Part shown: positions 3,879-63,945 of the stretch, in pieces
How the letters are laid out: every line of letters starts with the position of its first letter
Numbering within the stretch: position 1 is the stretch's first letter
Assembly (NCBI GenBank): GCA_011391745.1
Contig: JAABPX010000001.1
Location: 2,275 to 66,274 of the forward strand
From: Comamonadaceae bacterium
Lineage (GTDB): Bacteria > Pseudomonadota > Gammaproteobacteria > Burkholderiales > Burkholderiaceae_C
Length of the DNA stretch: 64,000 nt
Direction: 5' to 3'
Made by a program: the position numbers and the translations under genes
Notes under the pieces: model-generated
What the model was told of the DNA's origin: nothing
Seen by the model: the letters and a program-made list of their open reading frames with translations, nothing else
The model's database searches: none

Positions 3879-5420
3879 TCAACCTTGGGCCGCCACCCGA
3901 TCGGATTTGTTGTGCAATTTGGTGAGCGCACTGAGGTAGGCCTTGGCCGAAGCGACCACGATGTCTGGGTCAGCGCCCACACCATTGACCACTCGGCCGC
4001 TGTGCTGCAAGCGCACCGTGACTTCGCCTTGGCTTTCGGTGGAGCCGGAGGTGATGGCATTGACCGAGTACAACACCATCTCGGCACCGCTTTTGACCTG
4101 AGATTCAATGGCTTTGAGCGAAGCATCGACGGGACCGTTGCCGTCGGACTCGCTGCGCCGCTCTTGCCCATCCACCGTGAACACCACCGACGCAAACGGG
4201 CGTTCGCCGGTTTCGCTGCGCTGAGACAAAGACACCAAACCGTATTTTTCTTTCTCAGCCGTCACCGACTCGTCGCTGCACAGGGCCAAGATGTCTTCGT
4301 CAAAAATGTCACTCTTGCGGTCAGCAAGCTCTTTGAATGCCGCAAAGGCCGCGTTGATTTCGCCTTCAGAGTCCATTTGTATGCCCAGTTCTTCCAAGCG
4401 CTGCTTAAAGGCGTTGCGCCCACTGAGCTTGCCCAAGACGATTTTGTTGGCGGCCCAACCCACATCTTCGGCGCGCATGATTTCGTAGGTGTTGCGAGCC
4501 TTGAGCACACCATCTTGGTGAATGCCCGAGGCATGCGCAAACGCGTTGGCGCCCACCACGGCCTTGTTGGGCTGCACCACAAAACCGGTGGTTTGCGAGA
4601 CCATGCGGCTGGCCGGCACGATTTGTGTGGCGTCCACGTCTACATGCAGATTGAAATAGTCCTTGCGGGTTTTGATCGCCATGACGATCTCCTCCAAAGA
4701 ACAGTTGCCCGCCCGTTCGCCCAAGCCGTTGATGGTGCACTCGACTTGGCGTGCGCCCCCCATTTTCACGCCCGCCAAGGAGTTGGCCACGGCCATGCCA
4801 AGGTCGTTATGGCAATGCACGGACCAAATCGCTTTGTCGGAGTTCGGGATGCGTTCGCGAAGGGTTTTGATGAAGTTGCCGTACAACTCGGGGACGGCGT
4901 AACCCACGGTGTCGGGGATGTTCAAGGTGGTCGCACCTTCTTCAATGACCGCCTCAAGCACACGACACAAAAAGTCCATGTCGCTGCGGTAACCGTCTTC
5001 CGGACTGAACTCGATGTCACCCACCAAATTGCGGGCAAACCGCACCGACTGTTTGGCCTGTTCCAAGACCTGTTCGGGTGTCATGCGCAACTTCTTCTCC
5101 ATGTGCAAGGCACTGGTGGCAATAAAGGTGTGGATGCGGGCGCGCGCTGCACCTTTGAGGGCTTCGGCGGCTCGGGCGATGTCGCGGTCGTTGGCACGGG
5201 CCAAAGAACACACGGTGGAGTCCTTGATGACGTCGGCAATGGCTTTGACCGATTCAAAGTCGCCGTTGGAGCTGGCGGCAAAACCGGCTTCGATCACATC
5301 GACTCGCAGGCGTTCGAGTTGGCGCGCAATGCGCAACTTCTCGTCTTTGGTCATGGACGCGCCGGGTGACTGCTCGCCATCGCGCAAGGTGGTGTCGAAA
5401 ATGATCAATTTGTCGGTCAT
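3879..5420 (-). CDS. leuA: 2-isopropylmalate synthase
   Basis: [32 protein letters not shown]; C-terminal regulatory domain present. Confidence 0.98.
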
Positions 5421-5441
5421 GGTGTGCTCCTTGTGATCTCA

Positions 5442-5480
5442 GAAAGACAAACGGCCCGTTGCGGGGGCAAACGGGCCGTT
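5442..5480 (-). terminator. Attenuator terminator of the leuA leader
   Basis: Minus strand AACGGCCCGTTTGC-CCCC-GCAACGGGCCGTT (one bulge) followed by TGTCTTTC, about 20 nt before the leuA ATG. Confidence 0.8.
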
Positions 5481-5500
5481 GGATTGGGTTTACTTGTGCG

Positions 5501-5557
5501 CTACCAAACCTGCCCTAGTCGGACATGCGGTAGTAGGGCCAAAGCAAAGCGGTTCAT
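5501..5557 (-). CDS. leuA leader peptide MNRFALALLPHVRLGQVW (alternative start at 5563)
   Basis: Four Leu codons, three of them the rare CTA (tandem CTA CTA). Preceded by an extended -10 TGcTACATT 7 nt before the ATG; followed by the terminator hairpin. Confidence 0.8.
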   Translation of the reverse strand: MNRFALALLPHVRLGQVW

Positions 5558-5590
5558 GGGCATGAATGTAGCACAAGCGAAAAACAGGGG

Positions 5591-6403
5591 TCAATCGTGC
5601 ATGTCGCGTTCGTCGGGCTCTTGGGTCGATGTGCTGATGATGCTGATGGGGTGGCCTTTGGACTTCAGCCACAAAAAGACAGCGTAGCCAGACAGGCCAT
5701 AGACCAAAAAGATGCCGAACAAAACCCGGGGCGGATCGATGCTGATGACCGCAATCAACAAGGCCCCCAACACAATCGCGGCAAAGGGCACGCTGCGTTT
5801 GAGGCTGAGGTCTTTAAAGCTGTAGAACGGCGCGTTGGTGACCATGGTCAAACCGGCGTACAAGGTCAGGGCAAACATCGGCCAAGCCAAGTCCGAGGCG
5901 GCAACGCCCATCTCGGTGGCCACCCAAATAAAGCCAGCGACCAAGGCCGCTGCGGCAGGCGACGGCAAGCCTTGGAAAAAGCGCTTGTCCACCACACCGG
6001 TGTTGACGTTGAAGCGGGCCAAACGCAAGGCCGCGCAGGCCACGTACACAAAGGCCGCGATCCAGCCCCAGCGACCGAGGCCGCGCAGGGTCCATTCGTA
6101 AGCGATCAGCGCAGGGGCTGCGCCAAAGGACACCATGTCGGAGAGCGAATCCATTTGCTCGCCAAAGGCGCTTTGGGTGTTGGTCATGCGTGCCACGCGA
6201 CCGTCTAGGCTGTCGAGCACCATGGCCAGAAAAATCGCCACCGTGGCCAAGTCGTAACGCCCGTTCATGGCCATGACCACCGCATAAAACCCCCCAAACA
6301 GGGCCGCCAAGGTAATCATGTTGGGCAACATGTAAATGCCTTTGATGCGCTGCTTGGGCATGTCTGCCGCGTCTTTGGTTTCTGAATCGGGCGGGTTTGG
6401 CAT
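5591..6403 (-). CDS. pssA: CDP-diacylglycerol--serine O-phosphatidyltransferase
   Basis: LPNMIT, DSLDGRVAR...GEQMDSLSD CDP-alcohol phosphotransferase motif, RLARFN; ATG 2 nt after the ilvC stop. Confidence 0.95.
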   Translation of the reverse strand: MPNPPDSETKDAADMPKQRIKGIYMLPNMITLAALFGGFYAVVMAMNGRYDLATVAIFLAMVLDSLDGRVARMTNTQSAFGEQMDSLSDMVSFGAAPALIAYEWTLRGLGRWGWIAAFVYVACAALRLARFNVNTGVVDKRFFQGLPSPAAAALVAGFIWVATEMGVAASDLAWPMFALTLYAGLTMVTNAPFYSFKDLSLKRSVPFAAIVLGALLIAVISIDPPRVLFGIFLVYGLSGYAVFLWLKSKGHPISIISTSTQEPDERDMHD

Positions 6404-6405
6404 GA

Positions 6406-7440
<1,035 letters not shown>

Positions 7441-45138: not shown

Positions 45139-45172
45139 AATGTATGAATCCTATGTGACAAGCGTGTGACAA
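45139..45172 (-). promoter_or_regulatory. Pho box promoter of pstSCAB-phoUBR
   Basis: TTGTCAC-acgc-TTGTCAC-atag-GATTCAT (11 nt period); TACATT lies exactly 10 nt after the second half-site. Confidence 0.85.
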
Positions 45173-49817: not shown

Positions 49818-49851
49818 ATTATTGAACGGCCACGTGACGGTTGTGTGACAC
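49818..49851 (-). promoter_or_regulatory. Pho box promoter for ppk1-sixA embedded in the last codons of plcP
   Basis: GTGTCAC-acaa-CCGTCAC, then 10 nt, then AATAAT. Confidence 0.65.
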
Positions 49852-50679
49852 ATTGTCGGCGGTTTCAGCGCGATTTTTCACGGCTGGAACCCATTGCACG
49901 ATTTCCAAGCGCCCATCAAAGTGCTCGACCAAGGCGGTAAGGCTTTCCACCCAATCCCCGTCGTTGCAATACAAAATGCCATCGATTTCGCGCATTTCCG
50001 CACGGTGAATGTGACCACACACAACGCCTTGGTAGCCGTTCTTTCGGGCCTCTGCGGCCACCGCAACCTCAAAATCGTTGATGAAATTCATGGCTGTTTT
50101 GACCCGGTCTTTGAGGTATTGGGACAAGGACCAGTAAGGCAGCCCCAATCGCGAACGCCACGAGTTGAAGTGGCGATTGATGCGCAGGCTCAGCTCATAC
50201 AGGTTGTCGCCCAAATACGCCAACCATTTGGCGCATTGAATCACGCTGTCGAAATAGTCGCCGTGAATGACCCACAAACGTCGGCCATCGGCGGTGGTGT
50301 GCACGGCTTGGTTGCGCACCTCAACGCCGCCAAAATGCTGGCCGTCGAATTGGCGGGCAAACTCGTCGTGGTTGCCGGGCACAAACACCACGCGACAACC
50401 TTTGCGGGCCTTTTTAAGAATCTTTTGAATCACGTCGTTGTGCGCTTGTGGCCAGTGCCATTTTCTTCGCAACTGCCACCCATCGATGATGTCACCCACC
50501 AAGTACAGGTATTGGCTGGGGTGGCTTTTGAGAAAGGCCAACAGCTCTTTGGCTTGGCAACCGGCGGTGCCCAAATGCAAATCAGAAATAAACACCGCGC
50601 GGTATTTGGCTCGATCCGGACCAGACCCCGAAGTGTCGTTGTCCAAGCTGCCCATGAAGGCTTGGAAATCTGTGTACAT
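49819..50679 (-). CDS. plcP: PlcP-type Mn-dependent phospholipase C (metallophosphoesterase, often auto-annotated as LpxH-like)
   Basis: FISDLHLG, LYLVGDIIDGW, GNHD, HGD.FD, YWSLS, CGHIH, YCNDGDWVES; lipid-remodelling context. Confidence 0.82.
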   Translation of the reverse strand: MYTDFQAFMGSLDNDTSGSGPDRAKYRAVFISDLHLGTAGCQAKELLAFLKSHPSQYLYLVGDIIDGWQLRRKWHWPQAHNDVIQKILKKARKGCRVVFVPGNHDEFARQFDGQHFGGVEVRNQAVHTTADGRRLWVIHGDYFDSVIQCAKWLAYLGDNLYELSLRINRHFNSWRSRLGLPYWSLSQYLKDRVKTAMNFINDFEVAVAAEARKNGYQGVVCGHIHRAEMREIDGILYCNDGDWVESLTALVEHFDGRLEIVQWVPAVKNRAETADNVSHNRHVAVQ

Positions 50680-51506
50680 CAGGCCCCCAATAAAAATTTT
50701 CGGTAGCGTGCGGGCAAGTCGGCGGCGCGCATGAGCATGGGCAAGTCGGCGGCATTAAAGTCCGGGTCCCAGGCCGGTGGGCCCAACACCTTGGCACCCA
50801 AACGCAAATAACCCTTGATCAGCGCGGGCGGCTCCACATGCAAGGAACCATCGAGTTGCTCAATCGGCAAAGGCAAGCGTGGGCGTACATGCAAATCGAT
50901 GCTGGCCAAATGTTTGTCTTTGATTTGATGCCAAATGCTGGCCGCCGCATGGCCGCCGCCCACCATGCCCTGAGGCCCTTGGTGCTGCATGGGAATGGTG
51001 GCGCAACCGATCATGGTGTCCAAATCGTTGCGGTCCATGAAATCGAACAAAGCGCCCCACAAGGCCATGATCACGCCACCATGTCGATGTTCGGGGTGCA
51101 CACAACTGCGCCCAAGCTCAACCATGCGCTCACGCATGTGGCGCAGGCGGGTCAAGTCAAACTCGGTGTCGGTGTAGGTGCCACCCACTCGGCGGGCTTG
51201 CGCAGGGGTCAACACCCGGTAGGTGCCAACGACCTGCTGGGTGTTGGCATCGCGCACCAACAAGTGTTCACAAAAATCATCGAACAAATCAATGTCGTGC
51301 CCAGGAACTTTGCTCGACAGCTTGGCCCCCATTTCCAAGGCAAACACTTGGTAGCGCAGGCGTTGCGCTTCGCGAACTTCGTCTTGGTGTTGCGCCCAAG
51401 TTACCACGATGGACTTGGCACCCGGTGCATCGTCTTGCGGTGCATGGGGCAAAACGATTCGGGGCGCTGGCGACAGCAAGGTTGGGCTGATCGGTGGCTC
51501 TTTCAA
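50679..51506 (-). CDS. olsB: OlsB-like GNAT N-acyl amino acid synthase (ornithine-lipid type)
   Basis: EAQRLRYQVF, D.FDDFCEHLLVRD, VGTYRVL, EFDL, ELGRSCVHP, LIKGYLRLGA...PAWDPDF; AAGGAG SD with TTG start; TGATG overlap with plcP. Confidence 0.72.
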   Translation of the reverse strand: MKEPPISPTLLSPAPRIVLPHAPQDDAPGAKSIVVTWAQHQDEVREAQRLRYQVFALEMGAKLSSKVPGHDIDLFDDFCEHLLVRDANTQQVVGTYRVLTPAQARRVGGTYTDTEFDLTRLRHMRERMVELGRSCVHPEHRHGGVIMALWGALFDFMDRNDLDTMIGCATIPMQHQGPQGMVGGGHAAASIWHQIKDKHLASIDLHVRPRLPLPIEQLDGSLHVEPPALIKGYLRLGAKVLGPPAWDPDFNAADLPMLMRAADLPARYRKFLLGA

Positions 51507-51571
51507 TCGAGACTCCTTGGGGTATGACCCGGTCAGCCGGGTACGGATGTTTCTTTGAATCGACAAAACCG

Positions 51572-51627
51572 ATTGTGAAAAGAGAACATGTCGAACCGAT
51601 GTCAACCGCGTGAAGAATGGATGACCA
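51572..51627 (-). promoter_or_regulatory. Four-half-site Pho box promoter for olsB-plcP
   Basis: TGGTCAT, TCTTCAC, TTGACAT, TCGACAT at an 11 nt period, then 10 nt, then CACAAT. Confidence 0.75.
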
Positions 51628-51637
51628 AACGCTCGCC

Positions 51638-52852
51638 TCATCGCACCACCTCCACCTCGGCCTGCTTGCCGCTCAACAGCGACTGCCAATGGCTCTCCAC
51701 GCGCTGTGCAATCCAAGACCATGACCATTGCGCCGCTTGCTGCTGAGCGGCGCGTCGCAGGTCGTGCTGCGCATGGGCCGTGCACACGGCGTGCCCCAAG
51801 GTGTGAACAAACGCGTTCTCGTCGCCCACGGGCACCAAGTACCCATTGCTTTGGTGTGCAATCGCCAAGGCCGCAGCCGCGTAGTCAAAAGCCACCACCA
51901 CCAAGCCACTGGCCATGGCCTCCAAGGTGACATTGCCAAAGGTTTCGGTCAAGCTGGGAAAGGCGAAGACATCGGCGCTGGCGTAAACACGCGCCAAATC
52001 CTCACCACGCAAAGCGCCCGTAAAGATCGCATCGGGCATGCGGGCCATGAACGCGGCCTTCTCTGGCCCGTCACCCACCACCACCCATTTCGCTGTGGGG
52101 TGCGTTCGGGCCAGCGCCTCGCGGGCACGAACCAACAAGCGCAGGTTTTTCTCACTCGCCAAACGACCCACAGACACGATGACCACATCGTCCTGGGCAG
52201 CACCCCATTCGGCGCGGGTGCTCGCACAGCGCTTGCTCGCTGAAAAGTGGCCGATATCCACCCCGCGCCCCACCACAAGCAAACGCTCAAAGCCCCACCC
52301 AGCCAATTCGCTTTGCATGTCCGCAGTGGGGACCATGGTGAAGTCGCAGTGGTTGTGAAAGCGCCGCAAATAAGCCAGGATGGGTTTGCGCAACCAAGGC
52401 ATTTTGTAGTGCTCGGTGTAGGCGTGGAATTGGGTTCTGAAATCGGCACTCACGGGCAACTTCAATTTCTTGGCGGCCTTGAGCGCCGACCAACCCAGCG
52501 GCCCTTCGGTGGCGATGTGAACCACGTCGGGCCTGTGTTCAGACCACAAACGCAGCAATTCACCCTGTGACGGCAAGCCCATGCGCAGGTGCGGGTACTT
52601 GGGCACAGGCCAGCCGCGCATGAGCACTTGATTCAAACCCTGGGGCTTATCCCCATCCAGCTCCACCGATTGTCGTGGTCGTATCAACTGCACCCGATGC
52701 CCACGCTGCAACAGGCTGTTGACCAAACGTTGCAAGGTCATGGCCACGCCGTTGATTTCGGGCGGATAGGTCTCGGTCACCAAGGCGATGCGCAAGGGTG
52801 ATGGCCGGTCTTCGAGCGTGTCCACGCTGATGTGCTGGTGCGGTGCATTCAT
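51638..52852 (-). CDS. GT4 glycosyltransferase, Agt-like (diacylglycerol glucosyl/glucuronosyl transferase)
   Basis: [31 protein letters not shown]...[36 protein letters not shown]. Confidence 0.8.
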
Positions 52853-52858
52853 GCCCGC

Positions 52859-52892
52859 AATATGCCCACGCTTTATCTCAATCGTGTGACAA
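52859..52892 (-). promoter_or_regulatory. Pho box promoter of the GT4 gene (leaderless geometry)
   Basis: TTGTCAC-acga-TTGAGAT, then 10 nt, CATATT, 6 nt, ATG. Confidence 0.7.
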
Positions 52893-52919
52893 AACAACCA
52901 AAACACAACACTGGCGGTT

Positions 52920-52999: not shown

Positions 53000-54208
53000 A
53001 TGAAAATCGCCATCGCCGGTACCGGCTACGTGGGTTTGTCCAACGCCATTTTGTTGGCCCAACACCACGAGGTCGTTGCCTTAGACATCCTGCCCTCCAA
53101 AGTCGCCACGATCAACCGCCGCGAATCCCCCATTGAAGATGCTGACATTACGGATTATTTGCGCAACCAATCGCTCAACCTCACCGCCACCACCGACCCA
53201 GTGGCGGCGTTTACCGACGCGGACTACGTCATCATCGCCACCCCCACCGACTACGATCCCCAAACCCATTACTTCAACACCCGCAGCATCGAATCGGTGG
53301 TGGCCAGCGTACTGACCATCAACCCCCGCGCGGTGATGGTCATCAAGTCCACCGTGCCGGTGGGCTACACCGCCAAACTGCGAGCGTCGCTGCAAGCCCA
53401 GCAAAGCCACCCCGTCAACATCATCTTCAGCCCCGAGTTCTTGCGCGAAGGCCGTGCCTTGCACGACAACCTCTACCCCAGCCGGATCGTCGTCGGTGAA
53501 CGCTCCGAAGCAGCACAAGTGTTTGCCCATCTGTTGCAAGAAGGAGCTATCAAACAAGACATTCCCGTGCTGTTGACCGACAGCACCGAAGCCGAGGCCA
53601 TCAAGCTCTTTGCCAACACCTATTTGGCCTTGCGTGTGGCTTATTTCAACGAACTCGACACGTACGCGGCCATGCACGGCCTGGACACCCGGCAAATCAT
53701 TGATGGCGTGTGCCTGGACCCGCGCATCGGCGCGCATTACAACAACCCGAGCTTTGGCTACGGCGGCTACTGCCTGCCCAAAGACACCAAACAACTGCTG
53801 GCCAATTACCGCGATGTGCCACAAAACCTCATCAACGCCATCGTTGAGTCCAACACCACACGCAAAGATTTCATCGCCAGCGAAATCGTCACCCGAGCCG
53901 TCATGGCGAGCGAGGCCAAGCCATCCCGCCCTGTGGTCGGTATCTACCGCCTGATCATGAAAGCGGGTTCCGACAACTTTCGTGCGTCGAGCATTCAAGG
54001 TGTGATGAAACGCATCAAGGCCAAAGGCCTTGAGGTGGTCATTTACGAACCCAATTTGGCTGAGGCCGAATTTTTTCACTCTCGCGTGGTGCGCGACCTT
54101 GAGACATTCAAGCGCATCAGCGATGTGATCGTGGCCAACCGCCGATCAGAGGCTTTGGCCGATGTGCACCAGAAGGTCTACACCCGAGACCTGTTTGGGG
54201 CCGACTGA
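53000..54208 (+). CDS. ugd: UDP-glucose 6-dehydrogenase
   Basis: [48 protein letters not shown]. Confidence 0.97.
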
Positions 54209-54303: not shown

Positions 54304-54903
54304 GTGAGTACGTTTTGGCAACAATTGAATGAGCAGCGTTGGGACGACCACCGCTATTACCACCACAGCACCATCAACCAAAGCTTGCACCTGATCAGCG
54401 CGATCAGCTTTGTGGTCGCTTATGTCTTGGTCTGGACCGATCCCGCCATCGCCGCCTTGTTGGCTTGGCTGGTCTCGATGGTGAGTCGCCAATCCGGCCA
54501 TTTCTTTTTTGAGCCCAAGGGTTACGACGAAGTCAACCAAGCCACGCACGAGTACAAAGAAGAAATCAAGGTGGGCTACAACCTGCACCGCAAGGTGGTG
54601 TTGATGGCGATCTGGGCTTTGATCCCGGCTTGGCTGTGGGTCAACCCATCGGTCATGGGCTTGATCGAACCGTCCACCGACCTGATGGGTTTTGCGCGCG
54701 ACGTGGGCTGGGCTTGGTTTGCTTTGGGCGTGGGTGGTTTGGTGTTCCGAGTGTTGCAACTTGCGGTCCAACAAAACCTCAACACCGGTTTGGTCTGGGC
54801 CACCAAAATCCTGACCGACCCCTTCCACGACATCGCTTTGTATTACCGCTCACCCCTGCTGGTGTTGCGGGGCCAGTGGTTGGCGCCCGCCCGCGCACAC
54901 TGA
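54304..54903 (+). CDS. Uncharacterised membrane protein, DUF962/Mpo1-like His pattern
   Basis: HRYYHHSTINQSLH...RQSGHFFFEPK resembles the Mpo1 Y..H..P.N..LH and Q..GH..FE motifs; 4-5 hydrophobic segments; GTG start after AAAGGG. Confidence 0.65.
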   Translation: MSTFWQQLNEQRWDDHRYYHHSTINQSLHLISAISFVVAYVLVWTDPAIAALLAWLVSMVSRQSGHFFFEPKGYDEVNQATHEYKEEIKVGYNLHRKVVLMAIWALIPAWLWVNPSVMGLIEPSTDLMGFARDVGWAWFALGVGGLVFRVLQLAVQQNLNTGLVWATKILTDPFHDIALYYRSPLLVLRGQWLAPARAH

Positions 54904-54907
54904 GCGT

Positions 54908-56572
54908 TTAAGGCCGCCACCAGCCCAAGAGCTTGGGCCATTTGGCGGCCAACATCTCGCGCACCACCCGACGCCGCAAGGTTTTCAGGGTGGTGCCGCT
55001 GGGCAGATCCCACCAACCATCGGCCTGCATGGCCTGGGCCGCAGCCACCATGCGATCGCGCACCTGGCGCACATCGTCGTCGCTGGTGTCCAAGCTGAAC
55101 ATCATGCGACCGGATCCGACCCAACTCATGTAGAGCCCTTGCTGCCGGCAATAGAACTGGTACATCCAGTGGTAACGACCGGGCTGTGTGTAAGTGACGG
55201 TCCAGATGCTGGATAAATTTTGGATGCGCACTGGCACACCCGCGGCCTCAAAAGCTTGGTTGAAGGCCGTTCGCTCGCGGTTCCAACGCCCATCCACCCC
55301 GTCGTACAAAGCGTGTGCTTCGGGCGTGTCCAAGTAATGCAAGAACGCGTTCATGGCCCCCATCACATAGGGGTGGGCGTTGAAGGTGCCCCGGGCAAAA
55401 CACAGGTTGCCCGGTTGCTCGGGTTTGAAGCGGCGCATCCAAGCCGAGCGGCCACACACCACACCCACGGGATAACCGCCGGCCAAGGTTTTGCCGTAAC
55501 AGACCAAATCGGCCTGCACACCGAAATAGGCTTGTGCGCCCTCGCGATGGATGCGAAAGCCCACAAAAATTTCGTCCATGATGAGCGCAATGCCGCGCTC
55601 GGTGCAGACCGAGCGCAGTTTCCTCAACCATTGACCATAGGCCTCGCGGTCAAAGCCCGCGCTGCGGCTGCCGTCGACCAAGGTCGAGTCGCCGGGTGCG
55701 CCTTTGTTGGGGTGCAGTCCTTGCAGCGGGTTGACGATCACGCAGGCGATGTCGTGGCGGCTGCGCAGCACATTCAAGGTGGCCTCGTGCATGTCGCGCA
55801 AGGTATAGGTTTCGTGCACGGATGCGGGGTTGCCCGGGCCCGGCTGCACGTCGTCCCACCAGCCGTTGTAAGCCCCGGCGAATCGCACCACGTGTTGTTT
55901 GCCCGTGTGGTACCGCGCCAGGCGGACCGCTTGCATCACCGCCTCGGTGCCCGACATGTGGAAGGACACCTCGTCCATGCCCGAAATTCGCTTGAGGCGT
56001 TCCACGTTGTCAAGCACACAGGGGTGGTAAGCGCCCAATATGGGGCCCAGTGCTTCGCCCATGTCCAAACCTTTTCGCATCCAGGCTTTGTAAGCCTCAA
56101 GGCCCATGACGTTGACGCCATAAGAACCCGTGATGTCGAGGTAGGCGTGGCCATCCATATCGCGCAAATGCATGCCTTGGGATGAAGCCATGAAAGCGCC
56201 CATCGGCAGGTGTTCGCGCACCCATTCGCTGAATGGGTAAGGCACGCGGTAGCGGCTGGTGAGCTGCAAATCGGACAGGCTCTCACGCAAGCGCCGCGTG
56301 TGCTCCAAGGTGATGGGACTGCTGCGGCGAAAGTAAGCGCTCAAGCGCTCAAAACCGGCACGGCGCTGAGCAGCCAATTCGGGCGAAGCCCCATCGGCGT
56401 TAAAAAATGCGTCACCCACCAAGCTGTGGTGCGGCACCCAGCGCGCAGCCCGGCGCGACATGCGCACATGGCCGCCCAGCGAGGGGTGTTTGGCGCGAGA
56501 CAACAACCAACGGCGGTACACCGCAGGCAACAACAAGGCATCGGTCCAAGCGGGCAAATTCAAAGGGATCAT
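54908..56572 (-). CDS. Class III PLP aminotransferase (GSAM-like / PKS-NRPS AMT-domain-like) with N-terminal extension; function unknown
   Basis: G..L.DMDG..YLD...SYG, SGTEAVM.A.RLAR, F.GAYNG, IMDEIFVGFR, ADLVCYGKTLAGGYPVG (PLP Lys), GTFNAHP; 554 aa. Confidence 0.85.
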   Translation of the reverse strand: MIPLNLPAWTDALLLPAVYRRWLLSRAKHPSLGGHVRMSRRAARWVPHHSLVGDAFFNADGASPELAAQRRAGFERLSAYFRRSSPITLEHTRRLRESLSDLQLTSRYRVPYPFSEWVREHLPMGAFMASSQGMHLRDMDGHAYLDITGSYGVNVMGLEAYKAWMRKGLDMGEALGPILGAYHPCVLDNVERLKRISGMDEVSFHMSGTEAVMQAVRLARYHTGKQHVVRFAGAYNGWWDDVQPGPGNPASVHETYTLRDMHEATLNVLRSRHDIACVIVNPLQGLHPNKGAPGDSTLVDGSRSAGFDREAYGQWLRKLRSVCTERGIALIMDEIFVGFRIHREGAQAYFGVQADLVCYGKTLAGGYPVGVVCGRSAWMRRFKPEQPGNLCFARGTFNAHPYVMGAMNAFLHYLDTPEAHALYDGVDGRWNRERTAFNQAFEAAGVPVRIQNLSSIWTVTYTQPGRYHWMYQFYCRQQGLYMSWVGSGRMMFSLDTSDDDVRQVRDRMVAAAQAMQADGWWDLPSGTTLKTLRRRVVREMLAAKWPKLLGWWRP

Positions 56573-56614
56573 GTGTCATCAATCGTTCATGTGGCAATGA
56601 CAAACTTGTAACCG
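56573..56614. promoter_or_regulatory. Bidirectional Pho-box region between the aminotransferase and the psd-like gene
   Basis: Plus strand: GTGTCAT-caat-CGTTCAT, then 10 nt, then CAAACT. Minus strand: CGGTTAC-aagt-TTGTCAT, then about 9 nt, then AACGAT. The intergenic gap is only 59 nt. Confidence 0.65.
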
Positions 56615-56631
56615 TTGAATTTGACAAGACC

Positions 56632-57498
56632 ATGAAAAAACCCACTTTGCTCCAACGCTCAGGCCTCGCCGAGGACCTGAACTTTTTGTTCACCAACCGC
56701 ATTCCCCGCATTGCGCTCACACACGCCATGGGCTGGTACAGCCAAATCAAAAGTCCCTGGCTGACGCGCCTGAGCATTGCGGTTTGGGGTTGGTTCACGC
56801 CTTTGGATTTTTCTGAGGCCAAAGAACAACACTTTGACTCGTTGCACGCGTGCTTCACGCGCGAACTCAAGCCCGGCGCACGCCCTTACAGCCCCGACCC
56901 CAAGCTGATTTCTTCACCCAGCGACGGCATCGTGGGTGCCATGGGCCAGGTCCAAGATGGCGAAGTGTTCCAAACCAAAGGCTTCCCCTACACCTTGAAC
57001 GATTTGCTGGGCTCAGTGGCGCTGGCCGAGCAATACCGCCACGGTCACTACCTGACCTTGCGCCTGACCTCGGCCATGTACCACCGCTTCCACGCACCGG
57101 CACGCGTGCGTTTGGAACGGGTGAATTACATCTCGGGCGACACCTGGAACGTCAACCCCATTGCCCTACAACGCGTTGAGCGCTTGTTTTGTAAAAACGA
57201 GCGTGCCGTGCTGGATTTGGCCCTGCTCGACCACGGCGATCAGCGCATGCTCTTGGTGCCCGTGGCCGCGGTCTTGGTCGCCAGCATCCGCTTGCACGCC
57301 TTGGACACGAAATTGCACCTGCGCTACCGCGGCCCCAACGACATCCCTTGTCGGCATGAAGCGGCAGCGGGTGATGAATTGGGCTGGTTTGAGCACGGCT
57401 CGACCATCATCGTGCTGCTGCCCGAACACATCACGTGGGCCGAAGGCATTCAAACCGGTGTGCCCATCAAAGCCGGTACGCCCTTGGCAAACCTATGA
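56632..57498 (+). CDS. psd: Phosphatidylserine-decarboxylase-like pyruvoyl proenzyme (divergent subfamily)
   Basis: FTRELKPGARP, SPSDG, QTKG..Y, YHRFHAP, NVNP, LF.KNER, GWFEHGST cleavage site. Confidence 0.8.
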   Translation: MKKPTLLQRSGLAEDLNFLFTNRIPRIALTHAMGWYSQIKSPWLTRLSIAVWGWFTPLDFSEAKEQHFDSLHACFTRELKPGARPYSPDPKLISSPSDGIVGAMGQVQDGEVFQTKGFPYTLNDLLGSVALAEQYRHGHYLTLRLTSAMYHRFHAPARVRLERVNYISGDTWNVNPIALQRVERLFCKNERAVLDLALLDHGDQRMLLVPVAAVLVASIRLHALDTKLHLRYRGPNDIPCRHEAAAGDELGWFEHGSTIIVLLPEHITWAEGIQTGVPIKAGTPLANL

Positions 57499-57518: not shown

Positions 57519-58364
57519 TCACATCTTCAAAAAAGCGATGCCCACCAAGACCAGCCCCGTGGAAAAAGCGGCTGGCAACAAGCGCCCTTCTTTGAACCAC
57601 AGAATCGAAATCAGCATGGCAAACACCACAGAGGTTTCACGCAGCGCCGAGACCAAGGCCATCGGTGAGACCGTCATCGCCCACAAAACCATCGAATAGC
57701 CGGCGATCGAAATGACAGAACCCAACACAATCAAGCCCGCGTTGGTCTTGGAAAACGTCCACAGCGCCCGTGTTTGTTGCCGGTAAGCCAAGGCGTACAC
57801 CAGCATGGGCTCGAACACCGCCGACAGCAGCACATACGACAAGGCACTGCCCGAGACACGCGCCCCTGCCCCATCAACCACCGTGTACAACGCAATCACC
57901 CCCGCGTTGAGCAAAGCGAATTTGATCTGCCCCCAGCGCAAAGACCGCGCGATGTGGCGTTGGTAGGTGGACATCAAAAACAATATCCCCAAGGTCAGAA
58001 ACAACAAGCCCAACGACGAGGAACGGTCGAAGGACTCGCCCAAAAATGCCAAGGCAATCACCGTCACGAACACTGGGGCCATGCCCCGCATGACGATGTA
58101 AGCGGGGCCAAACGCGCTGTGGGCGTACACCTTGGTCAACACGAAGATGTACAGGCCGTGTAACAACACCGAGGCCAACAAATACGGGTGGCTCAGCTCA
58201 TGGGGCAAACCCACCCACCACAGCATGGGCACGGCAAGTACGGCGCTGCACAAATGCAATGCCATGGTGAAGAGGCCTTTGTCGGTGGCGCGGCTGATGA
58301 GGGAATTCCAAAGCGCGTGCATCAACGCGGCCAACAACACCGTCAGTAAAACACCATTCGTCAC
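57519..58364 (-). CDS. EamA/DMT family transporter
   Basis: AALMHALWN, AY..MRG..P, YTVVDG, VSALRETSVVFA; about 10 TM segments; GTGA overlap with the Nudix gene. Confidence 0.9.
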   Translation of the reverse strand: MTNGVLLTVLLAALMHALWNSLISRATDKGLFTMALHLCSAVLAVPMLWWVGLPHELSHPYLLASVLLHGLYIFVLTKVYAHSAFGPAYIVMRGMAPVFVTVIALAFLGESFDRSSSLGLLFLTLGILFLMSTYQRHIARSLRWGQIKFALLNAGVIALYTVVDGAGARVSGSALSYVLLSAVFEPMLVYALAYRQQTRALWTFSKTNAGLIVLGSVISIAGYSMVLWAMTVSPMALVSALRETSVVFAMLISILWFKEGRLLPAAFSTGLVLVGIAFLKM

Positions 58365-59170
58365 GCTTTCAGCACACGCAAAAACACACCCGTGGCCGCC
58401 AAGGTGAAGCGATCGGCTTCTAACGCATGGGTCAGCGCTTCCCTTTCAAATCGGTAAAACGCCGCCACCTCACCATCTTGGTTCAACGGCTCAACACCTG
58501 CCTCAAGCTCAGCCGAATAACAATGGATGGTTTCCACCGTCTGACCCCACCCCCGAGCGTCACCGCTGGGTTTGTTGAGTTCAATCGTGCCAAACGCGGT
58601 GAGGTTGACGAGTTGGCGCAGGCCCAAACCCGCCTCTTCCCATGCCTCTCGAGCCAAGGTCGCCGATGGATGTTCGTTCCAAGCCACCGTCCCGCCCACC
58701 AAGGTGTCCAAACGACCGGGGTCTTCCGCTTTGTTGGCCGCACGTTCCTGAACCCAGCACGCATCGCCTTGCCAACCGAGCACATGCACGCTGTGCGTGT
58801 GAACACCCAAGTACCGCGCCAAGTCGCGCGGTACCGCGCCGTGAAGCCGACCTTGGTCGTCCCACAAGGGCAAGCGCTCGGCCTCGGGCAGCACCCCCTG
58901 ACCAGGGTCGAACAGGTGCTGACGCAACGCGGCAAAGGTCGTGGTGGGGTCTTCGGGCAAATGCAACACATCGCCCCAATCGCTCGGCATCCATCGCCAC
59001 CCCGGTTGAAACCCCTCGCGACTCAGATGTTCAAGCATTGCGTGCGCAACCGAACCCACCACAAGGCCCCCAAGCCACAAAGGCGTTCTGGTGTCGGTTG
59101 GCGCTGGCTGGGCACGCTGCGCCCAGCGCTGCTCAAACGCAGGATCGAACGTCGGCCAGGGGGTTCGCAT
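58361..59170 (-). CDS. Nudix hydrolase (long N-terminal domain, DUF4743-like)
   Basis: Complete Nudix box G-TVAWN-E-HPSATLA-REAWEEAGL; K..DPG.LD.LVGG; P.NQDGEV. Confidence 0.85.
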   Translation of the reverse strand: MRTPWPTFDPAFEQRWAQRAQPAPTDTRTPLWLGGLVVGSVAHAMLEHLSREGFQPGWRWMPSDWGDVLHLPEDPTTTFAALRQHLFDPGQGVLPEAERLPLWDDQGRLHGAVPRDLARYLGVHTHSVHVLGWQGDACWVQERAANKAEDPGRLDTLVGGTVAWNEHPSATLAREAWEEAGLGLRQLVNLTAFGTIELNKPSGDARGWGQTVETIHCYSAELEAGVEPLNQDGEVAAFYRFEREALTHALEADRFTLAATGVFLRVLKA

Positions 59171-59179
59171 GGGTGCGAT

Positions 59180-60307
59180 TCAAGACGACATGGCCAAATC
59201 GAGCAACTCGCGTGCGAAGGCAAACGAAGTGGACGCACCGGTCCCGCCCGTGACCACGCCCAGCGCCAACCTGGGACTGGGCTGGGCTTTGAACACCACA
59301 TCCTGGGCAGAGGCGTAGCTGCCGGTCCAGCGCTCGATCACGCTGGCCTTGGGCAAATTCAAGACGCGATGAAATTCGTCCATGATGAGGTTCTCGGTGG
59401 CGGCACTGGCAAATGGGGCCTCGGCATCGCCATACACATGGCTGTCGCCCACCACCAATGAACCATCGGCGGATTGAACCACGATGAGGTGAATGCCTTG
59501 TGCCAAGTGCGCCGCTTGTTCGCCCAGCAAGCGTGCTTTGAGTGGCGTGGCTTCGGGCAAATCGGCATAACCCTCGTAACGAATCAAACTCAGGTCGGAC
59601 ATGAAGGCGCTCGACAAATGGAGCGCTTGACCGGGCGAGACACGCATCATTTGCAGGGTGCATTGGCGAATACCCGCCTGCGCCAAACACAGGGGAAAGA
59701 GCGCATTCAAATCGTTGCCTGGGCACACCACGCCGTATTCGGCGCGCAAAGAGCCGCGGCTGGTGTTGATGTGCGGCAGGTGAATGCCGGTGACGGGCGT
59801 ATTCCAATAAAAATCAACACCCAAGCTGTGTTCCAGCCATTGGCTCAAACGGGGAATGGCGTCGCGCGATTCAACCCGGCATTCGTGCGGGCTGTGCAAC
59901 AGCGCCATGCCCGGCTGCAACCAAGGCCAATCGCGCTGGGCTTGTTTGGCGTCCACCCAACGGCAACCCTCGCCCATTTCGGTGGCCATAAAAGCCTCCA
60001 GCACCGCCACCGCTTCGGGTCGCTGGGCCAGCACATGCAAGCCCTCATGAACCACCCCAATCCCTGCCTGTGGGGCCACCTCGCGCCAAATGGCCGCCGT
60101 GTCCTGCGCTCGCCGCCAGTGCTCGCCACGGCGTTGGCCGGTGACGGTGATGAATCCAAAATTGCGAACCGATGCGCCGATGGCTTTGGCGTTGCGCTCC
60201 ACCACCGCCACTCGCAAACCACGGCGGCGCGCGGTCCAGGCCGTGGCCAAGCCAATGATGCCTGCGCCCACGACCACCAGGTCGTATCCCAATTTCATGT
60301 TGCTCAT
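59180..60307 (-). CDS. FAD-dependent oxidoreductase of phosphonate clusters (TIGR03364/HpnW, PbfC-like)
   Basis: VVGAGIIGLA, GASVRNFG, RVESRDAIP, DGSLVVGDSH.YG, ERWTG.Y, GTGASTSF; directly after phnX. Confidence 0.85.
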   Translation of the reverse strand: MSNMKLGYDLVVVGAGIIGLATAWTARRRGLRVAVVERNAKAIGASVRNFGFITVTGQRRGEHWRRAQDTAAIWREVAPQAGIGVVHEGLHVLAQRPEAVAVLEAFMATEMGEGCRWVDAKQAQRDWPWLQPGMALLHSPHECRVESRDAIPRLSQWLEHSLGVDFYWNTPVTGIHLPHINTSRGSLRAEYGVVCPGNDLNALFPLCLAQAGIRQCTLQMMRVSPGQALHLSSAFMSDLSLIRYEGYADLPEATPLKARLLGEQAAHLAQGIHLIVVQSADGSLVVGDSHVYGDAEAPFASAATENLIMDEFHRVLNLPKASVIERWTGSYASAQDVVFKAQPSPRLALGVVTGGTGASTSFAFARELLDLAMSS

Positions 60308-60312
60308 GGTTT

Positions 60313-61125
60313 TTATGGGCGTTGGCCCTTGGCCAAGCGCTGTTCAATCTGGGTCAATACGGCCGGCAAATCGGCCACGGTGTCGATCACAAAATGGGCG
60401 CCGGCTGCTTGAAACACGGGGGTCACGCGCTCTCGCACGGCTTGCCGATCCGCCGCAGTGGCTTGTTCAAACTCGGCCAATGTCCACCCTGCTGGACTGC
60501 CCGATAAGCTCACACCCACGGTCCACATGCCGGCGTTTAAGCCCTCGGCAATGCCCGGCACCGTGTCGTCGACCTTCACACAATGGGCCACCGAGCCGAT
60601 GCGCAATTCTTGCACGCAAGCCAACGCCATCCACGGACCGGGCCGGGCACCAGCGGCCAAATCGTCGGCGCACACGGTGCAGTCGGGCGCGTAGCCCCGC
60701 TGCGCCGCCAGCAGCATGAGGCGCAGCATGACTTGACGCGGGTAACCGGTGGTGGAGCCAATCTTGAGGCCCTGGCGGCGCAGGGCTTGCACCAGTGCCA
60801 AAGCGCCGGGGATCAAGTCGCTGTGGGCACCCACGCGCTCGACCTGCAGCGGAATGAAGGTGTCGTAAATGTGGCGCACATCGTCTTGCGACATGGGTTG
60901 GCCAAACTGCGCCCTCCAGCGCGGACCCACATCGGGGTCTTGGCCCAAGGCCTCGATGTGCTGCCACTTGCCCAAACCCATGGGCCTGCGGGCTTCCTCT
61001 AAGCTCAGTTCAAACCCATAGGCTTGTGCAAACGCGTCCACAAAAATTTGGGTGGGGGCAAAAGAACCAAAGTCGACCATGGTGCCAGCCCAGTCGAATA
61101 CGACGGCTTCCAGTTGGGGTTTCAT
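60313..61125 (-). CDS. phnX: Phosphonoacetaldehyde hydrolase
   Basis: FDWAGTMVDFGS, R.PMG..KW.HI (Schiff-base Lys), TTGY, RP.PWM, KVDDT..GI.EG.NAG.W. Confidence 0.96.
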   Translation of the reverse strand: MKPQLEAVVFDWAGTMVDFGSFAPTQIFVDAFAQAYGFELSLEEARRPMGLGKWQHIEALGQDPDVGPRWRAQFGQPMSQDDVRHIYDTFIPLQVERVGAHSDLIPGALALVQALRRQGLKIGSTTGYPRQVMLRLMLLAAQRGYAPDCTVCADDLAAGARPGPWMALACVQELRIGSVAHCVKVDDTVPGIAEGLNAGMWTVGVSLSGSPAGWTLAEFEQATAADRQAVRERVTPVFQAAGAHFVIDTVADLPAVLTQIEQRLAKGQRP

Positions 61126-61165
61126 GGGTGTGCTCGCATTAAAAGAAACAAAAGTCGTGTGGCGC

Positions 61166-62842
61166 TCAACGAACCCGCCACGCTTGGGTGGATCGGTTCA
61201 ACCGATGGGTCAACACGCTGTGAATCAGTTTGACCGCTGCTGAAGTCACCACAATGACCACGGCCATGGCCGCCGCCGCCGCGGTGAAACCCGCTTCGTC
61301 CATGTGAATGATGGACACCGAGGCCAACTTGGTGTTTGAGCCATACAAAAAGACCACGGCCGAGACAGTGGTCATGGCGTTAACAAACAGGTAGATGCTG
61401 ATGTCGAGTACCGCCGGGGTGCACACGGGCACAGTGACCCGACCGAACATACGGCCCACCGACACCTTGAGCGAGGCCGACACCGATTCAAATTCACCGT
61501 CCAACTGCTTGAGCGCCGTGGTGGCGGTGATGTGGCTCACGGTATAGAAGTGCGCCACCGAATTGACCACCAAAATGGCCATGGTGCCGTAGATAAAACC
61601 CAAGGGATGTCCGGGTGCGTTGAAAAAGAAAATGTACGACAAGCCCAACACCAAACCCGGCACCGCCATCGACAGCATGGCCATGAGCTGTGTGGTGTTG
61701 CGCACCCACGCAAAGCCACGCGTTTTCTCCAACAGATACGCGCCCACAAACACGATGACCGTACCCGCCACCGCCGTCCAAACGGCCATGCGCAGCGAGT
61801 TGAAATACGCCCTCCAGCCCTCGCTGTCAAAGTCGGCGAATTGGTAGTTGGCCCAAGTCAAATTCAGGTTATAAGGCCACCGCGTGACCAACGAAGCCCA
61901 CACCGCCATGCCGAGCATCACCAGCATGGCTGACGCCACCAGCGCACAAAACACCCACAGCGCCCAATCGCGCGGCGCATGGGGCTGCGGCACGAGTGGG
62001 ACCGAGCGTCCGCTGAGCAAAGCCACTTGGCGGTGTTGAACCCAACGGTCTGCAGCAAACGCCAGCACGGCGGGCAACAAAAGCACAAAGCCCACCACCG
62101 CACCCATCGAGAAGTTTTGCTGACCAATCACTTGCTTGAAGATGTCGGTGGCCAACACATTAAAGCGCCCGCCAATGACCTTGGCAATGCCAAAGTCGGT
62201 GATGGCCAAGGTGAACACCACAAACCCAGCGCTGATCAAGCCGTATTTGCTGCCCGGCAGCGTCACCGTCAAAAAAGTTCGCCAAGGGGAGGCACCCAAA
62301 ACACGGGCGGCCTCGTAATGCCGGGCATCGGCCATGCTCAACGCCACCACCAAAATCATCAGCGCATGGGGAAACACATAAAACACTTGCGAAATGACAA
62401 TGCCCAACGGCCCGTAAATGGAAGCGCCCATGAGCCAGTGGTTGAGCACCCCTTGATTACCAAACAAATAAATCAAAGAGATGGCGGGCAGCAACGAAGG
62501 TGCCAAGATGGGGATCAAGGCCAGGGCTTTGAACACGGTTTTGCCGCGCATGGCGCTGCGCGTCAAAGCGTAGGCGTAGGCATAGGCCAACGGCAAGGTG
62601 ATGACCGTAATCAGGCCAGAAACCCACACACTGTTCCACAGCGAATCGAACAGCGCTGGTGTAGAAAAATACACAGCGTAATTGGCCCAACCCATCCAAT
62701 CGCCATCGGCATTCTCAAAACTCTTGATCAACAACGTGGCCAACGGCAACACCAAGGTCAACAACAGCCAAGCCGCCAGCAAAACCACGCCCAGCCGCAT
62801 CCAAGCGTCGTCCCAGTCCCAGCGATGCCGAGTGCCCGACAT
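61166..62842 (-). CDS. Putative 2-aminoethylphosphonate ABC transporter permease (fused double permease)
   Basis: PSLLPAISLIYLFGNQG, YEAARVLGAS, TDFG..KVIGG.FNVLATD, MAVPGLVLGL, EFESVSASLK; TGATG overlap with the ATPase. Confidence 0.88.
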   Translation of the reverse strand: MSGTRHRWDWDDAWMRLGVVLLAAWLLLTLVLPLATLLIKSFENADGDWMGWANYAVYFSTPALFDSLWNSVWVSGLITVITLPLAYAYAYALTRSAMRGKTVFKALALIPILAPSLLPAISLIYLFGNQGVLNHWLMGASIYGPLGIVISQVFYVFPHALMILVVALSMADARHYEAARVLGASPWRTFLTVTLPGSKYGLISAGFVVFTLAITDFGIAKVIGGRFNVLATDIFKQVIGQQNFSMGAVVGFVLLLPAVLAFAADRWVQHRQVALLSGRSVPLVPQPHAPRDWALWVFCALVASAMLVMLGMAVWASLVTRWPYNLNLTWANYQFADFDSEGWRAYFNSLRMAVWTAVAGTVIVFVGAYLLEKTRGFAWVRNTTQLMAMLSMAVPGLVLGLSYIFFFNAPGHPLGFIYGTMAILVVNSVAHFYTVSHITATTALKQLDGEFESVSASLKVSVGRMFGRVTVPVCTPAVLDISIYLFVNAMTTVSAVVFLYGSNTKLASVSIIHMDEAGFTAAAAAMAVVIVVTSAAVKLIHSVLTHRLNRSTQAWRVR

Positions 62843-63945
62843 CAAGCCACTCCAGCCGCTGGCCCGAACACGCGCAGGCGCTGCGCGGGCAAATCGATCG
62901 ACAAGGGCTGTTCTCTGTTCAAACCCATGCGCAGGGCTTGAGAGGTCAAGACATCGGCCACCAAGGTCTGTCCGTTGTGCGGGATGTGCATGCTCACGCG
63001 ACAAAATGCGCCCAAAAATTCCATGTCCTGAACCTGCGCCGCACAACGGTTATCGCCGCCCAGACTGGGTTGCGCCGAATCGTGCAACACAATGTCTTCT
63101 GGTCGAAGTGACAACGTCACCGTCCCGCCCAAAGGGGTCGTTGGCGTTTGGTCACACGACAACTCCAGACCGTGCCAATTGAAGCGTCCGGGGGCCACCC
63201 ATTGCGCTTGCAGGGGGTTGGTCTTGCCCACGAAGTCGGCCACAAACGCGCTTGTGGGTTGCTGATAAATGGCTTGAGGCGTACCCACCTGCTCAATACC
63301 ACCTTGGTTCATGACCACGATGCGGTCGGCCAAACTCAAGGCCTCTTCTTGGTCGTGCGTGACCATGATGGTGGTCACACCGAGCCGCTGGTGCAGTTGT
63401 CGCAACTCGGTGCGCAAATGCGCACGCACCCTGGCATCCAAGGCGCTCAGGGGTTCATCGAGCAACAACAAGCCCGGCGATGTGGCCAAAGCCCGGGCCA
63501 GCGCAACGCGCTGTTGCATACCGCCAGACAACTGGGCCGGATACTGGTGAGCGGATGCGGACAAACCCACCAATTCCAGCAATTCATCCACACGGGCTTG
63601 GCGGTTGTCACGGGTCCAAGCCTTGCCTTGTAAGCCATACCCCACGTTGTGCCGAACCGTTAAATTGGGGAACAAGGCATACGACTGAAACACAATGCCA
63701 AAGTCGCGCTGCGAAGGCGGCAAACCAGTGATGTCGCGCCCTTTTTGAATAATCGTCCCGCCGTCTTGCCGCTCCAAGCCTGCAATGATGCGCAGCAAAG
63801 TAGTTTTGCCGCAACCCGAGGGCCCCAAGAAACACACAAACTCACCGGGCTCAATGCTGAGCGATACATCGCGCAGCGCCCAAAAATCACCGAAACGTTT
63901 GTTGATGTGACGAACGTCCAAATACGCAGTGGCCGACAGATTCAC
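62842..63945 (-). CDS. Putative 2-aminoethylphosphonate ABC transporter ATPase (PhnT-like)
   Basis: GPSGCGKTT, VFQSYALFPN, LSGGMQQRVALAR, LDEPLSALD, HDQEEA; GTG start. Confidence 0.9.
   Translation of the reverse strand: MNLSATAYLDVRHINKRFGDFWALRDVSLSIEPGEFVCFLGPSGCGKTTLLRIIAGLERQDGGTIIQKGRDITGLPPSQRDFGIVFQSYALFPNLTVRHNVGYGLQGKAWTRDNRQARVDELLELVGLSASAHQYPAQLSGGMQQRVALARALATSPGLLLLDEPLSALDARVRAHLRTELRQLHQRLGVTTIMVTHDQEEALSLADRIVVMNQGGIEQVGTPQAIYQQPTSAFVADFVGKTNPLQAQWVAPGRFNWHGLELSCDQTPTTPLGGTVTLSLRPEDIVLHDSAQPSLGGDNRCAAQVQDMEFLGAFCRVSMHIPHNGQTLVADVLTSQALRMGLNREQPLSIDLPAQRLRVFGPAAGVA

Follow-up and report, generated by a model that had tools for sequence, protein, structure and literature searches.

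The 64,000-nucleotide stretch of contig JAABPX010000001.1 from a Comamonadaceae bacterium (positions 2,275 to 66,274), here called the window, encodes at 56,632–57,498 a homolog of phosphatidylserine decarboxylase (PSD), the enzyme that converts phosphatidylserine (PS) to phosphatidylethanolamine (PE). The gene lies in a Pho island, and the question that it raises is what a decarboxylase of this family does there. We use the label Psd2 for the clade holding this protein. Our preferred reading, to which we give a probability of roughly 0.55, is that Psd2 acts last, as the decarboxylase, in a Pho-controlled pathway leading to an amine-bearing, phosphorus-sparing lipid. Within this reading we infer the substrate, the order of the steps, the product and the regulation from gene content and sequence.

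The product of psd2 matches the PF02666 profile with 169.4 bits (cut-off 22) and TIGR00163, the NCBIfam model for PSD, with 137.3 bits (cut-off 111.75). When aligned to the E. coli PSD, Asp98 (within SPSDG) corresponds to Asp90, and His151 and His154 (within YHRFH) to His144 and His147. All three residues are invariant in the clade alignment, and so is the Gly-Ser-Thr of the predicted self-cleavage site across 33 clade members. The residue preceding this site is His255, where canonical PSDs have Leu, and Met149 stands in the place of Asp142, which is redundant with Asp90 for self-cleavage in E. coli (Cho et al. 2021, PMC7952604). The length of the predicted alpha chain is ordinary, since this genome's canonical Psd would yield one of 34 aa. 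A first-pass annotation of this DNA had listed the retained catalytic Asp, His and GST site, an alpha chain of 32 aa, and the replacement of YLSPxDYH by RLTSAMYH and of LGST by HGST. The alignment and the position of the predicted cleavage before Ser257 agree with all of these, and the replacements are clade-wide, not private to the window gene.

A model of Psd2 made with AlphaFold 2 from the 33-sequence alignment has a mean predicted local distance difference test score of 86.4 and contains three N-terminal helices, at residues 6–37, 42–53 and 71–75. Its best matches in the Protein Data Bank (PDB) are the E. coli PSD structures 7cnx/7cnw, with template modelling (TM) scores of 0.71/0.83, and most of the acyl-chain-contacting positions are still hydrophobic in the alignment of the clade. 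Judged by alignment and model, the open reading frame (ORF) in the window is a true PSD-family pyruvoyl decarboxylase with an intact catalytic set.

This family is able to switch substrate, as shown by PsiD, which acts on tryptophan, and by the arginine decarboxylase (ADC) of Aspergillus oryzae, both of which share superfamily and pyruvoyl chemistry with Psd2. Pairs of an aminotransferase and a decarboxylase yield diamines in polyamine pathways. Psd2 might likewise act on a soluble amino acid, with the gene module described below making use of the resulting amine. We consider this very improbable, because the model fits the membrane PSD far better (TM 0.71) than these soluble eukaryotic enzymes (TM only ~0.48, identity 17–20%), because the amphipathic N-terminal helices and most of the hydrophobic acyl contacts have been retained, and because the E. 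coli PSD requires acyl chains on its substrate (PMC7952604). The coordinates of psd2 and of the other features are collected in Table 1.

Table 1. Features of the window discussed in the text, in window coordinates.
Feature	Position	Strand	Remarks
psd2, PSD-family pyruvoyl decarboxylase paralogue	56632–57498	+	288-aa ORF; PF02666 and TIGR00163 matches
Beta chain (predicted)	56632–57399	+	residues 1–256
Alpha chain (predicted)	57400–57495	+	residues 257–288, 32 aa; cleavage before Ser257
Gly256-Ser257-Thr258 codons	57397–57405	+	predicted self-cleavage site, Ser257 as pyruvoyl precursor; equivalent of E. coli Gly253-Ser254-Thr255
RLTSAMYHRFH segment	57061–57093	+	residues 144–154; from alignment to E. 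coli PSD
Pho-box-like repeats	56573–56590	+ (psd2 strand)	TGTCAT-N5-GTTCAT, GTGTCATCAATCGTTCAT; abuts aminotransferase start codon
Two TGTCA half-sites	56598–56626	-	aminotransferase strand; TGACA on + at 56598–56602 and 56622–56626
Class III aminotransferase	54908–56572	-	554 aa, ~120-aa N-terminal extension; divergent from psd2
Mpo1/DUF962-like His-rich membrane protein	54304–54903	+	converges on aminotransferase; PF06127 E 3.9e-4, below cut-off
ugd, UDP-glucose 6-dehydrogenase	53000–54208	+	profile matches; frequent, not constant neighbour
GT4 lipid-type glycosyltransferase (Agt/SqdX-like)	51638–52906	-	fourth recurrent block member
OlsB-like N-acyltransferase	50679–51785	-	
PlcP-like metallophosphoesterase	49819–50679	-	beside GT4
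Reference Pho box upstream of pstS	45140–45171	-	three in-phase 11-bp repeats TGTCAC, TGTCAC, ATTCAT
ilvC, then pssA directly	5591–7422	-	ilvC 6406–7422, pssA 5591–6448; no psd between

Several lines of evidence set Psd2 apart from the canonical enzymes. A profile of the clade, searched over 401 genomes of the order, identified 42 Psd2 carriers from 16 families, and the hidden Markov model scores were bimodal, with 350–473 bits for Psd2 versus 177–213 bits for the canonical long Psd. In a quick maximum-likelihood tree all 31 Psd2 rows fell on one side of a branch of length 0.59, with a support of 90 in the Shimodaira-Hasegawa-like approximate likelihood ratio test, and the short-type Psd appeared as a far outgroup. 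The clade has a signature in three segments: T-[LI]-R-L-[TK]-x-x-M-Y-H-R-F-H-A-P, where canonical enzymes have T-x-Y-L-[SA]-P-x-D-Y-H-R; G-D-x-W-N-V-N, where they have P-G-x-L-[FWY]-[SP]-V-N; and W-F-E-H-G-S-T, where they have x-F-x-L-G-S-T. This signature was found in none of the canonical long PSDs sampled as 50%-identity representatives. We regard Psd2, on these comparisons, as a clade separate from the canonical PSDs.

The substitutions, numbered as in E. coli, are Tyr137 to Arg, Pro140 to Ser or Ala, Asp142 to Met, Phe165 to Trp, Ser166 to Asn and Leu252 to His. Across the 33 members, which reach down to 36% identity, Arg144 and Asn173 do not vary, and Met149, Trp172 and His255 show at least 90% conservation. 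In the E. coli enzyme the head-group phosphate is held by Tyr137, Ser166 and the amide of Val167, and Leu252 lines the sn-2 acyl site beside the pyruvoyl group (PMC7952604). The clade-invariant changes coincide with phosphate-binding or pocket-lining residues of E. coli, namely Tyr137, Ser166 and Leu252. By this comparison, Psd2 has an intact catalytic set and a remodelled head-group pocket.

The same residues bear on another explanation, in which Psd2 is a second true PS decarboxylase, an isozyme converting PS to PE during phosphate starvation. Such an isozyme could keep up the PE pool, or feed PE to the neighbouring aminotransferase, Mpo1-like protein, glycosyltransferase and methyltransferase for head-group conversion. 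In its favour, all catalytic residues and the three membrane helices of the E. coli PSD are kept, the cut-off of TIGR00163 is passed, Asn166 can form hydrogen bonds as Ser does, and Arg at the position of Tyr137, found in 15% of PSDs (Cho et al., PMC7952604), should bind phosphate. The pocket changes speak against it in being invariant in the clade and absent from all of the canonical long PSDs sampled. Taken with the distribution and neighbourhood of the gene, set out below, this makes us regard an isozyme as unlikely.

Inspection of the whole genome (2.18 Mb, 97.8% complete) revealed a total of two PF02666 genes, psd2 being therefore not its only psd. The other one, on contig 35, encodes a protein of 283 aa with the canonical motifs YLSPKDYHRIHMP and LLGST, and is 32% identical to the Psd2 of the window. 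The description of psd2 as a divergent Psd paralogue in the first-pass annotation is borne out by this low identity and by the separate clade. A small PIN-domain-like ORF adjoins the canonical psd on contig 35, as judged by eye from the translation only.

The annotation had also pointed out that pssA follows ilvC with no psd in between, and the gene order ilvC-pssA-leuA (3879–7422) agrees. Five other families of the order have ilvC, a short psd, pssA and leuA. The empty junction, where other families keep a psd, is what favours the idea, put forward at the time, that Psd2 is this genome's housekeeping Psd, moved to a new place. We give this idea next to no chance, and it is refuted in our view by the canonical long psd on contig 35, by the presence of the same type in 9 out of 9 other genomes of the family, by the restriction of Psd2 to four of ten family genomes, and by its position in a clade of its own.

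The short Burkholderia-type Psd is the housekeeping enzyme in most families of the order, where it is encoded between ilvC and pssA. It is a PF02666 member with a Gly-Ser cleavage site, but differs from Psd2 in its length of ~215–240 aa, its N-terminus, a Phe at the position of Tyr137 and its place as far outgroup. It is absent from the family of the window, which uses the long E. coli-type. Since the short enzyme is gone from beside pssA and a long Psd is found family-wide, the lineage seems to have swapped the short for the long enzyme at another locus. We interpret this gene content as a non-orthologous displacement of the housekeeping Psd, with Psd2 being a third thing.

The distribution of Psd2 is patchy, with 42 carriers among the 401 genomes of the order. 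A long canonical Psd is also encoded in 16 of the carriers, and a short-type PF02666 gene in all 25 tested of the remaining ones, so that another Psd is present in 41 out of 41 tested carriers. A housekeeping Psd in every carrier tested is a further point against a mere isozyme, and from this distribution we consider Psd2 to be an accessory paralogue and not the PE-forming enzyme of the cell.

A clue to the role of Psd2 is the company that it keeps. An orthologue of the class III aminotransferase (at least 611 bits) is found in 41 of the 42 Psd2 genomes, always adjacent, and in none of the 359 other genomes. Among solved structures, this aminotransferase comes closest to the beta-ketoacyl-aminating AMT domain of MycA (162 bits). 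A DUF962-like protein is also encoded in 41 of the 42 genomes, the missing case being at a contig end, and Mpo1-like/DUF962 proteins are the Atlas neighbours of the window protein. The conversion of PS to PE needs no such obligate link to an aminotransferase, which again argues against an isozyme. The one carrier in which psd2 is decoupled (G215, a single contig of 2.0 Mb, C1:1496144–1497835) has an intact Psd2 beside a truncated DUF962 gene, the aminotransferase being gone; it may represent a decaying module. The DUF962-like and aminotransferase genes lie tail to tail with a gap of 4 nt (54903–54908) and no terminator-like structure, and this arrangement is kept in nearly all loci.

Scanning of species-representative genomes gave at least 584 relatives, and in the loci of the best 80 of these psd2 is adjoined by the aminotransferase in 76, the DUF962 gene in 71 and the GT4 gene in 64. 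In 27 of the 80 loci there is a plcP no more than 6 kb away, in 17 an ugd, and there are occasional genes for a major facilitator superfamily transporter (21) or PPK2 (10). No constant member beyond the four genes emerged when all ORFs of the 80 loci were clustered. These 80 come from, among others, Hydrogenophaga, Tepidicella, Ideonella, Rubrivivax, Roseateles, Limnohabitans, Polaromonas, Rhodoferax and Rhodocyclaceae.

About 12 Bradyrhizobium species, also among the best 80, carry the block in the order GT4, S-adenosylmethionine-dependent methyltransferase, DUF962, aminotransferase, Psd2 and NUDIX. Its proteins are ~60% identical to the betaproteobacterial ones, implying transfer between classes; the GT4 of the window is 33% identical to that of the Bradyrhizobium module. 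The additional methyltransferase suggests, from gene content, an N-methylated product. It belongs to the UbiE-like class, which includes some phospholipid N-methyltransferases, and in this respect fits an isozyme that supplies PE. In a distant metagenomic variant (41% identity) a gene for a neutral/alkaline ceramidase of 822 aa lies between the aminotransferase and Psd2 genes, and neither GT4 nor DUF962 was seen in the stretch examined of this variant.

The module of the window is part of a Pho island consisting of pstSCAB, ppx, ppk1, the genes for the PlcP-like phosphoesterase, the OlsB-like acyltransferase and GT4, ugd, the module itself and then 2-aminoethylphosphonate genes. Beside the block in relatives are phoR, PPK2, ugpBAEC/glpD and plcP-olsB. 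To make an additional phospholipid beside PlcP under Pho control would spare no phosphorus, another point against the formation of PE by Psd2.

Downstream of psd2, genes on the minus strand at 57519–63046 encode an EamA transporter with a weak match to the phosphonate-associated TIGR03340, a NUDIX protein, a TIGR03364 FAD oxidoreductase, the phosphonoacetaldehyde hydrolase PhnX and a PhnU2-type 2-aminoethylphosphonate permease. Other carriers do not share this neighbourhood. The NUDIX gene is the second one downstream of psd2 (58361–59170); the Bradyrhizobium block also has a NUDIX gene after psd2.

The first-pass annotation assigned psd2 a Pho box of its own. The repeats abutting the aminotransferase start codon resemble the pstS box of the window, and they are kept as TGTCATC-N4-TTTCAA, again abutting this start codon, in Tepidicella/Hydrogenophaga-type loci. 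The box has three mismatches to the E. coli Pho-box consensus, and matches to this consensus are not enriched in the window (5 versus 2.97 expected), so that the psd2 box taken alone is no more than chance would give. Matches to a relaxed pattern of two half-sites are not enriched window-wide either (34 versus 52.8 expected), and it is only their clustering that is informative, with 16 of the 34 in four Pho-type spacers totalling ~400 nt.

We collected 69 distinct spacers between the aminotransferase and Psd2 genes, with a median length of 62 nt and most of them 53–75 nt long. TGTCA on the aminotransferase strand occurs 74 times in these spacers versus 4.0 expected, an ~18-fold excess, and the maximum of 1000 shuffles was 12. 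On the psd2 strand it occurs 11 times versus 4.1 expected. In 50 of the 69 spacers the expected place of a Shine-Dalgarno sequence, within 16 nt of the psd2 start, is taken by a TGACA, in the form TGACA(A/G) 5–9 nt before the start codon. In the window the TGACA at 56622–56626 lies 6 nt before the ATG, and no Shine-Dalgarno sequence was seen before this ATG (56615–56631), nor a sigma-70 consensus promoter on the plus strand before psd2. The short spacer and the placement of TGACA suggest leaderless or very-short-leader divergent transcripts. We see in the spacer a putative compact bidirectional control region of the PhoB type. The Pho box originally assigned to psd2 is plausible in the light of its likeness to the pstS box, its conservation and the enrichment of half-sites.

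What might such a module make? Pyruvoyl decarboxylases require a free amine on the carboxylate-bearing carbon, and the substrate of Psd2 would therefore have to bear an alpha-amino-acid group. That this substrate is a lipid is suggested by the retained membrane helices and hydrophobic acyl positions. As the aminotransferase is an obligate partner, the amino acid is likely made in situ from a 2-oxo acid, and the nearby GT4 and PlcP point to diacylglycerol or a glycolipid as the anchor. The methyltransferase of the Bradyrhizobium block argues for a primary amine as product. The Mpo1 family acts on 2-hydroxy acids, according to its Pfam description.

In the preferred reading, Psd2 would be a self-processing, pyruvoyl-dependent decarboxylase at the membrane surface, encoded in a four-gene block with the GT4, the Mpo1/DUF962-like membrane protein and the membrane-anchored class III aminotransferase. 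PhoB would turn this block on when phosphate is scarce, and the diacylglycerol or glycolipid precursor would probably come from the PlcP-Agt system. On a diacylglycerol-based and probably glycosylated lipid, the Mpo1-like protein may convert a 2-hydroxy-acid head group to a 2-oxo acid, which the aminotransferase would turn into an amino acid, most likely just before the step of Psd2. The Psd2 proenzyme would by then have cleaved itself between Gly256 and Ser257, Ser257 becoming the pyruvoyl group that forms a Schiff base with the free alpha-amino group of the head group. With His151 positioning the leaving carboxylate, CO2 would depart and leave a primary-amine head group behind, which in Bradyrhizobium the adjacent methyltransferase may then methylate. 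What would result is a PE- or PC-like lipid (PC, phosphatidylcholine) that spares phosphorus.

Several points weigh against this reading. Arg144 and Asn173 could still hold an anionic group or a phosphate, which would keep PS as a possible substrate, and the sequence of Psd2 does not demand that phosphate binding was lost. The Pfam match behind the Mpo1-like assignment falls below the cut-off. The best-conserved half-sites face the aminotransferase gene, and the box facing psd2 is conserved in a subclade only. We found no clean chemical route from glucosyl- or glucuronosyl-diacylglycerol to a free alpha-amino-acid head group, and, besides PS, no lipid with such a head group is known to derive from glycosyl-diacylglycerol. 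The three enzyme chemistries would be compatible with a furanuronic acid, a glycerate-type or a malyl/aspartyl-ester head group, though none of these has support here.

Two routes were considered and rejected. Glucuronosyl-diacylglycerol fails as a starting point since C5 of a pyranuronic acid cannot carry an alpha-amino acid, and an Arn-like route of 4-oxidation, decarboxylation and amination needs no pyruvoyl enzyme.

The second explanation in the first-pass annotation, a decarboxylase for a non-phosphate aminoacyl lipid, has fared better than the first. It fits the co-inheritance of Psd2 with the aminotransferase, the Mpo1-like protein and GT4 beside PlcP and Pho genes, and it is qualified by a pocket that could still bind phosphate. 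A bolder version is that GT4, the Mpo1-like oxygenase, the aminotransferase and Psd2, with or without the methyltransferase, build a new class of phosphorus-free, amine-bearing diacylglycerol lipids, a sugar-linked surrogate of PE or PC that hundreds of bacterial species from freshwater and soil would make once phosphate is exhausted. We put this forward tentatively, as a speculation that falls somewhat short of even odds.

Among characterised enzymes Psd2 is closest to the E. coli Psd (PDB 7CNW–7CNZ, 6L06), with which it shares family, fold, Gly-Ser-Thr site and pyruvoyl serine, the equivalents of Asp90, His144 and His147, the three amphipathic N-terminal helices and the largely hydrophobic acyl-chain positions. 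It differs in being only ~28–32% identical, in its clade and remodelled pocket residues, and in being an extra copy, paired with an aminotransferase in 41 of 42 genomes, in a Pho context. The closest known pathway is the PlcP-Agt lipid renovation under phosphate starvation, described from SAR11, Phaeobacter, Agrobacterium, Pseudomonas aeruginosa and Methylosinus (PMC4796936, PMC8528852, PMC9239053). The locus of psd2 resembles it in having a PlcP-like phosphoesterase, a GT4, ugd and Pho-type sites nearby. The described versions, however, end at monoglucosyldiacylglycerol (MGDG) and glucuronic acid diacylglycerol (GADG), and lack a PSD paralogue, an aminotransferase and an Mpo1-like protein; the papers on phosphate limitation in Methylosinus and Burkholderia mention neither a decarboxylase nor an aminotransferase. 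We found no paper on this paralogue or module in the literature on PSD combined with phosphate starvation, Pho regulon, aminotransferase, DUF962 or Bradyrhizobium. As a kind of enzyme Psd2 is familiar; no description of its clade, pocket signature, obligate partners or Pho context was found in the literature searched.

The exchange of phospholipids for phosphorus-free lipids is a major bacterial answer to phosphate scarcity in lakes, oceans and soils, and it also alters the susceptibility to antibiotics and phages. The known bacterial surrogates are glycolipids, ornithine lipids, glutamine lipids and betaine lipids. The current annotation of Psd2 genes as phosphatidylserine or archaetidylserine decarboxylase probably misstates their role. 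The module is widespread, with at least 584 relatives in species-representative genomes, for example of Hydrogenophaga, Rubrivivax, Limnohabitans, Polaromonas and Bradyrhizobium. With a specialised PSD paralogue at its centre, this conserved and Pho-linked module suggests a further head-group chemistry that lipidomics has left unassigned.

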